The notes beneath the pieces are model-generated. The model saw only the letters and a list, made by a program, of their open reading frames with translations. It had not been told where the DNA came from and searched no databases. DNA of 64,000 nucleotides from a virus. The stretch lies in the IMG/VR virus record IMGVR_UViG_3300021478_000023, positions 1-64,000 of that record, one strand, 5' to 3'. This document shows positions 46,873 to 52,746 of the stretch, piece after piece; the stretch's first letter is position 1, and each line of letters starts with the position of its first letter. Position numbers and translations under genes: made by a program.

Positions 46873-47021
46873 TCTTGAACTGCTACCGGCTCGCGCGCTG
46901 GTATCACGTCAGTCCTGATTTGTTTCTATCGATGACCTACGGCGAGGTTCACTTGCACTTGCGGCGCACCTTGCAACTCGCGAACTTGTTGCAGCGGGAA
47001 TCATCATCCGATGGCGAATGA
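46821..47021 (+). CDS. -1 frameshift extension of the tail chaperone
   Basis: slippery T TTT TTC at 46821-46827; the -1 frame is open to 47021 (LARWYHVSP). Confidence 0.7.
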   Translation, partial: FFRSRSASVVVGTDEEIILNCYRLARWYHVSPDLFLSMTYGEVHLHLRRTLQLANLLQRESSSDGE

Positions 47022-49749: not shown

Positions 49750-52746
49750 ATGCCAACGGAAACCGAGGAATTAAGACTCATAGTGCGGCTGGACGACCAA
49801 GCGTCGGGCCAGCTTCAAAACTTGCGCGCGCATCTAACACAGATGGGGAGCGGCCCGGTCAGTCAGGGGATGGGGCAGGCAACCGCCAAGGCGACCGAAT
49901 TAGAAAGGGCATTCGGCCATCTAGCACGATCCGCGCTCGGCGTCGGGCGCACCGCAATGGACTTGGCCAAGATCATCGGACCAATGCCAGTCGCGATTGG
50001 CGTGCTCGGATATGAAATGATCCGTGGCATCGGCGCGATGAAAGAATGGTCCGCGCAGATGACGGCGATCAACAACGCCGCTCGCATGGCCGGGGTTAGT
50101 GCAGGAAACTTTCGCGGCATCACCGATCAGCTACGCCAGTCAGGCATCAGCGCGGGTGACGCGGCTGGCATGGTGCAGAGTTTAACCAAGTCAATCGCGG
50201 AAGCGGTCAGGCCGGGCACTCAGCTTCGCAACAATCTGATCGCGATAGCTGGCGTTAATGCCAGCGCGATGACCGATGCGTTGCAACAGCTATCGGAAAT
50301 GACCGACGCCACTGACCGGATGAACAAAATCCGGCAGATGGGCTTGGACGTTTACCGGCACAAATTCAACGAAACCCACGACGCAATGATTGCGCGCGCT
50401 GCGCAATTGAATTTCCTGCAATACTTTGGGCAACAACAACTCATCAACCAGAAACAGGAACTACATAGGCTCGATCAGCGCTCAATCGACAACATGAATG
50501 ATGAGGCGAAAAAGCAAGATGATTTGAATGCCGCACTGGTGAAAGAGGAAGAAGCGCGCAAGCGCATTTCAGACATCATCAAAGGCATGCTCGGACCTGA
50601 TTTTGAAAAGGCCATCAATCTTGTTGCTAAGGTTGAGGGATGGATTGGACGGCGCGGGGAGACACTTGAGAGTCAGCAACGCGCTGGCACCGATTTTATG
50701 ACGCAAGCTGGCAAGGGCTACGGTGACGTAGCGCAGATGACCGGCGCGGGAGCGGTGCACGATTTCCTGAAAGCGCACGGGCTCGCATTTCAGCACGGCG
50801 GCGTCGTCACCGGGCGGACGCCAGGACTAGTCGGCGAGGCCGGACCCGAAGCGGTCATGCCTTTGGATGCGCTAGGCGGCGGGCAATCCAAACACACTGA
50901 AAGCGTCGGCGAGAACACCAAGCAATTGCGCATGCTCAACGAGCAAATGGAGCAAATTCTAAATCCATCGCTGATCAGCAAGTACGCGCAAGGCATGGGC
51001 GGCGTCGGCGCTGGAATGGGCGACGGCAGCGGTGATGGCACTGGTCCGGGCGGGCCGGGCGGCACGTCATCTGGACCGGGCGGCAACGACAGCACAACGC
51101 CGCCAGCACCGGGCGAGCCGGGCGGGGAAGCGCTCAACATGGAATCGGCGCGCATCGGCATGAACCCGATGTGGGATAACGCCAGTGGCAGCGCACAGAA
51201 CCGTCCTAGCGGCGGCATGTTGGGAGCGATGGTGGCGGGCGGCGGCTTGACCACGGGCGGCTTCGCTAAAGCGCCACGGATGCAATGGCCAGCGGCACCC
51301 GGAGCAATCACGAATGCAACGGCTACGGGTGGCGGCAGCGCGTATTTGGCGAAACAGCGCGCCGCGATGTTTGCTGAATACGATAAATGGTCCCCCGAAC
51401 AGAAGCGCACACTTGCAAACGTCGCGATGGCTGAAAACGGAAAATCCCCGCAAGACGTAATAGAAAGTTTGGCGAACCGTGTTGTTGGTGAAAAAGGTAC
51501 GCGAGCAAATCGTGGTGGGACATTGTGGGAAGGTTTGACCAATGGCTTTTATAGTTCATTCCACGGCGCGTATGCGGCGGCTAAGGCTGGTCGCGGAAAC
51601 ATTCAATTAGCTGATAAGATTGCTACTGGTGTGCGCGGCGGTAGCGATGTGCTTGAGGGTCGGTCAGATCAGGGCATGTGGACTGACCCTGGTCACAGAG
51701 ACATGCACGCTCGCGGGGCCGCTCCGGGGACAGGCATTAACGCTCTTGGCGTAGCGCGACGATTGAAGTTCATCAATGGTGAGTGGTACAGCGACAAACA
51801 ATCAATCTCACTTGGGGCAGTTTCAGATGAGCGCCGACGCCAAGCGGAATACGATGCCAGCCAATCGCCGGTTCAAGTTGCAAGCCTAGATCCCGGCAGC
51901 GGTGTTGGTACTACAACCGCCCCGCCGTCAGGACCGATGGGGTTTGGTCCATTTGGCGTGGGCGCGAGCGGCACGACGGTCGCGAGCGGGGCAACAGGTT
52001 ATAGCGGCACTAGTCGTTTTAATTTTGCGGGTTCCAAGGAAGCCGCTGCGATGGGAATAAACATCGCACCAGATGCGGTTCAACAATTTGCTGTTCCCGG
52101 TGTCAAGGGCATCCCCGGTGGTCAAATCAAAGCCAACAAATATGCTGGCCCGGATTTCGTCGGATTCCTGCAAGACTTGCAAGCGGCTGGTGCCCCGCTC
52201 ACAAATTTCAGTGGTGTGTACGCTCATAGAGAAAAGAGGGGCGGCGGCGGCTTATCGCAGCATACCTACGGCAACGCGATGGACATTGAAACCGGGTTTG
52301 GTTCTGGACCGGACAACAGTCCATACTTGTATAAATGGGCGCAAGAGCATCCACAGGAATTTGCTGAAATACAAGCACGGCATCACTTGCGGAATTTGGT
52401 CAACACCGGCAATCCAAAACACCCGCATGATTGGGGGCATTTCGAATGGACGCCGGGCGCGGTCGATCCCGCCGCAGCAACCGTAGCGAATGTTGGAAAG
52501 CCTAAGAGTGATTGGCCAACGTCGGCAGAGGACACCGCTACAACGCTCGACAAGATGATGGCTGGCGAAAACAAGCCGTCCGATACGAGCGGCACGATCA
52601 CGATCAAGCACGGTGCAAAACCGTCAGCAACACCGAAAGACAAAAAGCCCGCATTCAAGGACGTGCCCGACAATCGGCAAGGCGCGATGCTTCCCGCCGA
52701 AGCTGGTCCGAAAGCCGCAGATCCCGCCGCTCACGTTCAAGGGTAG
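49750..52746 (+). CDS. tape measure protein paralog B with M15-type peptidase domain
   Basis: N-terminus homologous to paralog A; GVYAHR...LSQHTYGNAMDI...DWGHFE. Confidence 0.85.
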   Translation: MPTETEELRLIVRLDDQASGQLQNLRAHLTQMGSGPVSQGMGQATAKATELERAFGHLARSALGVGRTAMDLAKIIGPMPVAIGVLGYEMIRGIGAMKEWSAQMTAINNAARMAGVSAGNFRGITDQLRQSGISAGDAAGMVQSLTKSIAEAVRPGTQLRNNLIAIAGVNASAMTDALQQLSEMTDATDRMNKIRQMGLDVYRHKFNETHDAMIARAAQLNFLQYFGQQQLINQKQELHRLDQRSIDNMNDEAKKQDDLNAALVKEEEARKRISDIIKGMLGPDFEKAINLVAKVEGWIGRRGETLESQQRAGTDFMTQAGKGYGDVAQMTGAGAVHDFLKAHGLAFQHGGVVTGRTPGLVGEAGPEAVMPLDALGGGQSKHTESVGENTKQLRMLNEQMEQILNPSLISKYAQGMGGVGAGMGDGSGDGTGPGGPGGTSSGPGGNDSTTPPAPGEPGGEALNMESARIGMNPMWDNASGSAQNRPSGGMLGAMVAGGGLTTGGFAKAPRMQWPAAPGAITNATATGGGSAYLAKQRAAMFAEYDKWSPEQKRTLANVAMAENGKSPQDVIESLANRVVGEKGTRANRGGTLWEGLTNGFYSSFHGAYAAAKAGRGNIQLADKIATGVRGGSDVLEGRSDQGMWTDPGHRDMHARGAAPGTGINALGVARRLKFINGEWYSDKQSISLGAVSDERRRQAEYDASQSPVQVASLDPGSGVGTTTAPPSGPMGFGPFGVGASGTTVASGATGYSGTSRFNFAGSKEAAAMGINIAPDAVQQFAVPGVKGIPGGQIKANKYAGPDFVGFLQDLQAAGAPLTNFSGVYAHREKRGGGGLSQHTYGNAMDIETGFGSGPDNSPYLYKWAQEHPQEFAEIQARHHLRNLVNTGNPKHPHDWGHFEWTPGAVDPAAATVANVGKPKSDWPTSAEDTATTLDKMMAGENKPSDTSGTITIKHGAKPSATPKDKKPAFKDVPDNRQGAMLPAEAGPKAADPAAHVQG

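Follow-up and report, generated by a model that had tools for sequence, protein, structure and literature searches.

Tandem tape-measure paralogs with different predicted wall-hydrolase cargo in an uncultured soil phage

Phage tape measure proteins (TMPs) are taught as homo-oligomers, encoded by a single gene, that set the length of the tail and open the way for the DNA. Here, we describe a locus in which two paralogous genes, A and B, stand side by side at the position of the TMP gene, each with different predicted cell-wall hydrolase domains between shared ends. The locus lies in the viral record IMGVR_UViG_3300021478_000023 (72,409 bases; completeness rating 96%), the first 64 kb of which are the window analyzed here. 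The phage is uncultured, comes from soil, and has a contractile tail; the stretch is present in soil metagenome runs from eight studies, with no RNA run among those listed, which is neutral as to expression.

The genes around A and B follow the order of the phage Mu tail module, gp39–gp48: sheath, tube, chaperone, TMP, tube initiator (gp43/gpN), hub (gp44), spike (gp45), gp46, and gp47. In Mu, the TMP, a trimer of gp42, fills the lumen of the tube, and its last residues are gripped by hub gp44 and spike gp45 (PMC11915804; this and the other cited papers were available in part, and statements about them refer to those parts). Mu has a single TMP gene, whose product is described as a trimer, with no hydrolase domains reported in the available text (PMC11915804), whereas the window has two paralogs with enzyme cargo and a split tube initiator.

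TMPs with embedded hydrolases are already known. The T5 protein pb2 reportedly has a wall hydrolase embedded in it. As proposed here for A and B, the TMPs of mycobacteriophage TM4 (PMC1796659) and of the RHEph10-type Rhizobium phages contain a muralytic domain that is delivered on ejection. However, all of these TMPs are single genes, and no division of cargo between paralogs is described for them in the texts available. Sister phages of the window (L008/L009, L010/L011, and L014; L030 in Bradyrhizobium jicamae) have single TMPs that share with A and B the N-terminal signature, the C-terminal tail, and M15 and DPBB domains. They differ in having both enzymes in tandem on one chain of 798–882 aa, with no second gene.

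Three other systems place enzymes or cargo in or near the tail tube. First, in cyanophage A-1(L), a hub with endoglucanase and peptidase domains lyses host cells, and the TMP is described as a six-fold bundle, of which three C-termini are seen at the spike (PMC10966104). A-1(L) resembles the window in bringing together at the tail tip the two activities predicted for A and B, and in a structural match (8kea) to the DPBB domain of A, but its enzymes are on the hub rather than the TMP, and it has one TMP gene. Second, the RcGTA protein g14 is likewise a separate wall peptidase; it occupies the tail channel underneath the TMP and is the first to be released, but at 150 aa it is a small protein that stands alone and has no TMP modules (PMC7296036). 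Third, the Sle1/Tme effectors of actinobacterial contractile injection systems combine a TMP-related N-terminal coiled-coil with an exchangeable C-terminal domain and are packaged inside the tube (PMC13277306). These effectors belong to a bacterial injection system, their cargo is not described as muralytic in the available text, and they have a DUF4157 partner that is absent here; no sequence relation between A or B and Sle1/Tme was detected. A full-text literature search, with most subscription journals outside its coverage, found no description of tandem TMP paralogs with divided cargo. Similarly, the available parts of PMC3447690, PMC8407745, PMC3556154, PMC2147016, PMC13120211, PMC3271669, and PMC6145125 do not describe tandem TMP paralogs.

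Two tape-measure genes with shared ends

A first-pass annotation of the window had placed two adjacent open reading frames (ORFs), of 911 and 998 aa, in the TMP slot. Both ORFs are intact, their coordinates proved exact, and the chaperone and gpN-like genes named as flanks are identified by matches to PF10109 and PF07157, respectively (Table 1). A starts within the end of the −1 frame extension of the tail assembly chaperone (TAC) gene, and B stops 3 nt before the tube initiator gene. BLASTP aligns A and B with 191 of 412 positions identical (46%), 12 gap columns, and an E-value of 1e-113. This agrees with the annotation, which had described N-termini that align almost without change in length, and the motifs that it quoted are all present. 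One of them, GEAGPE, starts at aa 357 in A, where it is repeated at aa 426, and at aa 362 in B. The N-terminal module (hereafter “N-module”) of A also contains the clade-wide signature M..E.EEL.L.V.LDD.AS.

Beyond the N-module, the annotation considered the two proteins to diverge completely. The BLASTP match is indeed limited to the N-terminal ~410 aa, but the two proteins have a second region in common, a C-terminal tail of ~70 aa, which is apparent when A is aligned with its homologs and with B, when B-types are aligned with one another, and when the ends (last ~95 residues) of 14 TMP-like proteins are compared. The consensus of this tail, LD..(x)..G.I.V.VNAP.GT.V..EG.G.F, occurs in both proteins and also in single TMPs of relatives. 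B and all single TMPs examined keep the canonical last ~25 residues, which the tail of A lacks. The G[IV]RG ending of A recurs in all A-type orthologs and in the first-position copies of L019 and L003. Both proteins thus have both TMP ends, and their tails have differentiated.

At the family level, A matches the TMP family phrog_2276 (E 3e-7) and, below the cut-off, PF10145 (E 0.0046, with 17.3 bits where 33.2 are required). The B-type protein P0015 has a match to PF20155 that is also below the cut-off (E 0.0058). A tblastn search with A against 50,697 phage records gave no match. We consider it very probable that A and B are both functional TMP paralogs.

The duplication is old. The synonymous divergence between them (dS) is 1.6–2.0 (~1.8, saturated) and the nonsynonymous divergence (dN) ~0.48, giving a dN/dS of ~0.27. 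In a patch at aa ~300–345, protein identity is 80–87%, compared with 73–80% for the DNA. Among the natural variants listed from two soil runs (40 of 66), synonymous changes make up 15 of 21 in A and 16 of 19 in B. Both genes are thus under purifying selection. A rival explanation is that one copy is a recent, non-functional duplicate or an assembly error; unequal recombination at the 28-nt stretch common to both genes could create a tandem duplicate. We regard this explanation as scarcely credible for A and B, given that dS is saturated, that the variants are mostly synonymous, that both orthologs are intact in several lineages, and that the junction of A and B is bridged by Logan contigs of two runs from different studies (X1, 49600–50866; X4, 49526–49898). 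The annotation had likewise judged an artefact improbable, and neither gene shows the decay that it had named as evidence to the contrary.

To place the pair among its relatives, we fetched 30 related loci, of which 11 have one TMP, 5 have a tandem pair, and 14 could not be counted. With the window included, a tandem pair occurs in 6 of 17 readable loci; the annotation's premise that one TMP per phage is the norm does not hold in this clade. A single TMP, of 738–910 aa, lies between the chaperone and the tube initiator in L007, L008, L009, L010, L011, L014, L021, L029, L030, L031, and L032; L008/9 and L010/11 are near-duplicates, and L029–L032 are prophage-like loci in genome records of Pseudolabrys, Bradyrhizobium, and an uncultured alphaproteobacterium. 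To judge by the related prophages, Bradyrhizobium-like Alphaproteobacteria of the soil are the probable hosts of the clade. Tandem TMP-like genes are found in L003, L017, L019, L023, and L024, with both genes complete in L017 and L023 and the second cut by the contig end in the other three. In 401 genomes from the family of the Bradyrhizobium jicamae locus, an N-module profile has matches in 8 and two matches on one contig in none.

Orthologs of A are 86% (P0003) and 45–48% (P0004–7) identical to it, and those of B are 89% (P0009), 72% (P0010 and P0011), and 28–52% (P0012–16) identical. A-types and B-types co-occur in at least four other contigs, directly in L019 and, to judge from equal size and source, in three contigs of 92,486, 17,220, and 9,953 bases, with the partners P0003 and P0009, P0005 and P0013, and P0006 and P0014, respectively. 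Tube proteins that are at least 90% identical come from contigs of the same three sizes. A maximum-likelihood tree built from the first 300 residues joins B to the second copy of L019 (support 94/84) and places A with P0003–7, L018, and the first copy of L019 (98/98); these two groups are sisters (99/97). The duplication thus predates the split of these lineages. The four copies of L023 and L024 form a clade of their own, as do the two copies of L003, which would reflect either further duplications or homogenization. The first copy of L003 has the A-like G[IV]RG ending, which argues for homogenization of the N-modules in that locus.

Cargo between the constant ends

The structures of A aa 436–830 and B aa 520–915 were predicted with small alignments, with a mean pLDDT of 57 and 66, respectively, and of 64–97 in the domain cores. 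The first payload of A is predicted to be a DPBB-fold domain that is RlpA/expansin-like, with putative enzyme activity. Structural comparison with VIA matched it to Pa4485 (4avr_B; Z 8.4, rmsd 3.3, 88 of 94 residues aligned, 25% identity), to residues 282–393 of a baseplate chain of A-1(L) (8kea_A; Z 8.3), which its length suggests is the hub gp15, and to the Streptomyces papain inhibitor SPI (5ntb_B; Z 8.1). Foldseek matched it to expansins, kiwellin, cerato-platanin, and designed DPBBs. Searches by sequence gave no match to Pfam DPBB_1 at E ≤ 1 and nothing significant in a sequence-profile search of the PDB. Of the RlpA-like DPBB that the annotation had proposed, the fold stands, and the assignment to the RlpA family is a candidate one. 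Asp95 and Asp107 (alignment numbering) are invariant in 7 of 7 sequences and may correspond to the RlpA catalytic residue. The second payload of A, a predicted helical domain (aa ~665–830), is conserved in P0003, P0005–7, and L003.

The C-terminal payload of B contains the motifs SQHTYGNAMD and HDWGH, and the zinc ligands of the pattern H-x6-D...H (H84, D91, and H143 in alignment numbering) are invariant in 11 of 11 homologs. VIA matched its predicted fold to LdcB (4jid_A; Z 8.4, rmsd 4.0, 130 residues aligned), VanXYg (7.8), VanXYc (7.7), and VanYB (7.5). In a Foldseek search of the PDB, the first 29 rows are all M15/LAS enzymes (E 0.055–2), and the BFVD rows are D-Ala-D-Ala carboxypeptidases. 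The match to PF13539 (E 0.04; 14.9 bits) is below the gathering cut-off of 25, and a sequence-profile search of the PDB found nothing significant; we therefore classify the domain as M15-like on the basis of its fold and motif and do not count it among the curated members of the family. The M15 zinc peptidase of the annotation is thus upheld by fold and ligands. In addition, B aa 782–917 matches 10 Rhizobium phage records at 33–36% identity, nine under “tape measure protein” and one under “lysin A”.

The annotation had also suggested a SleB-like segment in B. The only structural matches of the corresponding helical domain, “B_mid”, are to SleB catalytic domains (4fet_A, Z 6.3, rmsd 3.7, 105 of 122 residues; 4f55_A, Z 5.6), at scores below the level of trust for helical matches. 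Profile comparison with five alphaproteobacterial Hydrolase_2 domains (hhalign) gave the expected register but no significance (probability 0.1–0.9%, E 0.059–0.43). A further lead, from the Atlas, is a cluster with PF07486 in 30% of its members (score 0.86). PDB sequence-profile searches with B_mid and with its widened family returned nothing significant, and 0 of 8 members scanned have a Pfam match. The family has 447 representatives at E ≤ 1e-3, unannotated and mostly within proteins of 600–1400 aa; in 1 of 10 short members scanned, a PG_binding_1 domain lies behind B_mid. A muralytic role for B_mid is plausible, and the likeness to SleB is a faint one.

Among the members from other metagenomes, P0100, P0209, P0144, and others are proteins of 200–290 aa that consist of B_mid followed by the canonical TMP C-terminal tail, without an N-module. 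These may be free enzymes of the tail lumen with a TMP-type docking tail, or gene fragments.

The annotation had divided the cargo into glycan cleavage by A and peptide cleavage by B. A and B do have different wall-hydrolase payloads, but B probably carries two enzymes, and some A-types have no DPBB domain. Indeed, A-type payloads consist of a DPBB domain only, a helical domain only, or both, and P0005–7 have no recognizable enzyme domain. B-types keep aa 1–520 and the tail, and their interior is wholly different from one to another: M15 here, Amidase_2 in P0015 (E 2.6e-17), and unrelated sequence elsewhere. Such scaffolds, with interchangeable cassettes between constant ends, have practical appeal as a means of fitting phage tails or tailocins with enzymes of choice.

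Other tandem pairs also differ in cargo. In L017, one copy has an M23 domain and the other M15, with N-termini that are 32% identical (E 6e-29). In L023, one copy has a lysozyme/CHAP-like region and the other a glucosaminidase; between these two TMP genes lies an HNH homing-endonuclease-like ORF (phrog_655, E 2e-6; L023:8586–9095).

The annotation had pointed to relatives as a check on the pair. Both genes are kept in several lineages. Single-TMP relatives exist as well, but these have the two enzymes fused: in four distinct single TMPs (L008/9, L010/11, L014, and L030), an M15 domain 56–66% identical to that of B is directly followed, on one chain, by a DPBB domain 35–45% identical to that of A. 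We therefore read the pair as one modular TMP that has been sub-divided, rather than as doubled cargo. Natural controls within the clade are provided by the sister phages and Bradyrhizobium prophages in which one chain has both enzymes.

One tail or two

We propose that a modular TMP underwent an old tandem duplication and that selection kept both copies. By analogy, the N-module of ~410 aa would be the part that is held by the chaperone and lines the tube, and the C-terminal tail of ~70 aa would, by analogy with Mu, be placed in the hub–spike complex. The cargo between these ends would have been divided and exchanged as cassettes, with DPBB and helical domains in A and the candidate muralytic helical domain and M15 in B. 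With a gap of 3 nt between the genes and no promoter-like site at the junction, A and B would be translationally coupled, and hence made together from one message and served by the same chaperone. They would then share one tail lumen, in a mixed bundle, and be ejected together, bringing several wall enzymes to the periplasm. B, with its canonical tail, probably docks at the hub and spike, and A, with its derived G[IV]RG tail, probably took on a different end contact. We infer virion incorporation, co-assembly, and the enzyme activities from the sequences, and put the co-assembly of A and B in one tail at an even chance.

Alternatively, A and B might each be homo-oligomeric, such that one burst yields two kinds of particle with different enzymes, a form of bet-hedging across wall states or hosts. 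Both proteins have both TMP ends and N-modules of equal length, so that either could in principle build a tail alone; some relatives manage with a single TMP, and, at 46% identity, the coiled coils may have diverged enough to sort by type. On the other hand, co-translation from one message and a shared chaperone favor mixing, and the absence of the canonical last ~25 residues from A would be odd if A docks alone. Furthermore, in the two lineages whose A-types have no recognizable enzyme (P0005–7), A-only particles would lack a TMP-borne hydrolase. We consider two particle types distinctly unlikely. Our leaning toward co-assembly is due to the differentiated tails, the enzyme-less A-types, the parallel N-modules, the six-fold bundle with three C-termini in A-1(L) (PMC10966104), and the precedent of TMP-related cargo (PMC13277306), the last two as far as the available text goes. 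A complex prediction with three spike N-termini and three A tails scored 0.12 against a mark of 0.32 and counts neither way.

A second alternative concerns which protein sets the length. B could be the true tape measure and A a TMP-derived cargo or ejection protein, with the N-module as its ticket into the lumen, comparable to Sle1/Tme. The derived tail of A, with an ending that it shares with the first copies of L019 and L003, is consistent with this, as are the varied payloads of A-types and the published precedent for TMP-related cargo (PMC13277306, in the part available). However, it is A that directly follows the chaperone and has the better TMP family matches, and its N-module is full length and as conserved as that of B. 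We think this arrangement unlikely; it overlaps with co-assembly, since both proteins would be in one tail, and differs only in the identity of the length-setter.

In a third alternative, A and B lie end to end in a longer tail whose length reflects the sum of the two. Each copy is as long as a normal single TMP of the clade, and the two are in the same reading frame, separated only by TAA CCG (49744–49752). However, the same N- and C-terminal end modules in both copies fit parallel better than serial placement, the shared frame is not conserved (present in the L019 pair, absent in the L003 and L024 pairs), and the sheath and tube share 70–80% identity with their counterparts in single-TMP relatives and give no hint of a doubled tail. 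A serial arrangement is very unlikely.

Read-through of the stop codon between A and B would yield a fusion of 1,911 aa. As a conserved feature, such a fusion was rejected, since the pairs of L003 and L024 are out of frame. An invertible or switchable segment was also rejected: no long inverted repeats flank either gene, and no joints were seen in the contigs.

A comparison with a 92-kb relative reveals a sharp local divergence of both N-modules. Most tail proteins are close to identical between the two phages: sheath 99.3%, tube 100%, N-terminal half of the tube initiator 100%, hub 99.8%, spike 96.8%, gp47 96.1%, and gp48 98.3%, with the fiber at 88.4%. A beyond aa 345 (98.4%) and B beyond aa 350 (98.8%) follow this trend. 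By contrast, the N-modules are only 66% (A, 47011–48045) and 76% (B, 49750–50799) identical, making them the most diverged of the tail proteins compared, beyond even the tail fiber. Across five genomes, the N-modules of A and B diverge in step (0.79/0.80, 0.57/0.57, 0.38/0.39, and so on; r 0.99 over 10 non-independent pairs).

Concerted evolution was considered as the cause of this parallel divergence and rejected: of the informative quartet sites, 118 support orthology, 4 (of 122) concerted evolution, and 0 the crossed pattern, apart from one patch. In that patch, at aa 281–345, A matches its own B at 14 sites, compared with 3 for the B of the relative, which fits an exchange between the two genes, to judge from the sequences. 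The remaining divergence looks like allele replacement, or fast divergence, that struck both N-modules together. That it is so local, with most other tail proteins 96–100% identical, points to a selective pressure on the TMPs.

One specific form of co-assembly would account for this pattern. In an obligate two-subunit tape measure, A and B would combine in a fixed ratio, e.g., three of each in a six-fold bundle, with the tails of B forming a tripod at the hub and spike, the tails of A making other contacts, and N-modules that must match one another. We hold this version tentatively, at rather less than an even chance. If true, it would explain why the N-modules were replaced or diverged together in otherwise near-identical phages, and tandem TMP genes would mark a general, undescribed class of hetero-oligomeric tape measures.

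Several considerations weigh against co-assembly of two working TMPs. For B itself, PHROGs give no TMP family match at E ≤ 0.01, and the weak M15 match is its sole Pfam lead; its status as a TMP is based on its homology to A and the position of its gene. The helical, tube-lining nature of the N-module is assumed from knowledge of the family, and A, given its derived tail, may have ceased to dock at the hub. Divergence of the N-modules in step is also expected under simple co-inheritance. For three of the contigs with both types, co-occurrence is deduced from equal size and the same source, and side-by-side order was not seen. The TMP of Mu is described as a trimer in the available text (PMC11915804), and a trimer could accommodate two species less readily than a six-fold bundle. 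Lastly, the phage is uncultured, and A and B are known here as sequences. The conserved pair makes two questions testable: whether a tail core can be built from two different proteins, and how enzyme cargo is partitioned and exchanged between them.

The surrounding tail module

Gene-family matches identify a Mu-type contractile-tail module around A and B (Table 1), completed after the spike by the gp46 and gp47/J genes.

Table 1. Coordinates of A, B, and neighboring genes in the window
Feature	Coordinates	Strand	Basis or remark
Sheath	43951-45777		Mu-type tail module
Tube	45854-46234		Mu-type tail module
TAC, G-like form	46255..46872	+	PF10109 Phage_TAC_7 E 9e-7, phrog_166
TAC −1 frame extension (GT-like form), 73 codons	46800..47021	+	ORF list and sequence read; overlaps start of A
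TMP paralog A, first position, 911 aa	47011..49746	+	phrog_2276 TMP E 3e-7
A N-module, aa 1-410	47011..48240	+	46% identity to B
28-nt identical stretch, two copies	48077..48104 and 50831..50858	+	Within GEAGPEAV motif
A payload 1, predicted DPBB-fold domain, aa ~472-603	48424..48819	+	Predicted structure, pLDDT 64-89
A payload 2, helical domain, aa ~665-830	49003..49500	+	Predicted helices, low pLDDT
A C-terminal tail	49471..49743	+	Shared element, then derived extension ending GGIRG
TMP paralog B, second position, 998 aa	49750..52746	+	Starts 3 nt past TAA of A, same frame
B N-module, aa 1-410	49750..50979	+	BLASTP against A
Gly/Pro-rich linker (37% G+P), then connector	50977..51324	+	Connector conserved among B-types
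B payload 1, helical domain B_mid, aa ~541-683	51370..51798	+	Candidate muralytic, weak SleB likeness
B payload 2, M15/LAS zinc peptidase (M15-like), aa ~766-911	52045..52482	+	Fold and motif
B C-terminal tail	52522..52743	+	Canonical type of single TMPs (..FKDV..NRQ..M.PA..GP..)
Tube initiator, N-terminal half (Mu gpN/gp43-like)	52750..53370	+	PF07157 E 2e-15, phrog_184
Tube initiator, C-terminal half, own ORF	53357..54043	+	phrog_184 positions 292-402
Baseplate hub (Mu gp44/gpP-like)	54047..55288	+	
Spike (Mu gp45-like)	55288..56232	+	PF06890

The TAC gene contains a canonical −1 slippery heptamer, T TTT TTC, at 46821–46827, and ORFs homologous to its −1 extension are found in L014, L021, L023, and L024. 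These features suggest that a frameshift produces the longer, GT-like form. The tube initiator, which is one protein in Mu, is encoded by two overlapping ORFs, and the same split is found in every related locus in which both halves are readable.

Outside the tail, the genome is not Mu-like, with a primase/helicase, a phrog_9 large terminase, a protease-capsid fusion, and a portal. The fusion is a 759-aa ORF (35338–37617) that matches both the head maturation protease (phrog_80) and the major head protein (phrog_617), and the portal gene (38404–39900) lies downstream of it. Finally, the sheath protein, of 608 aa, has ~85 extra residues (aa ~44–127) that are absent from the 521–531-aa sheaths of most relatives (L008, L021, L029, and L031) but present in the 607-aa sheath of L010.

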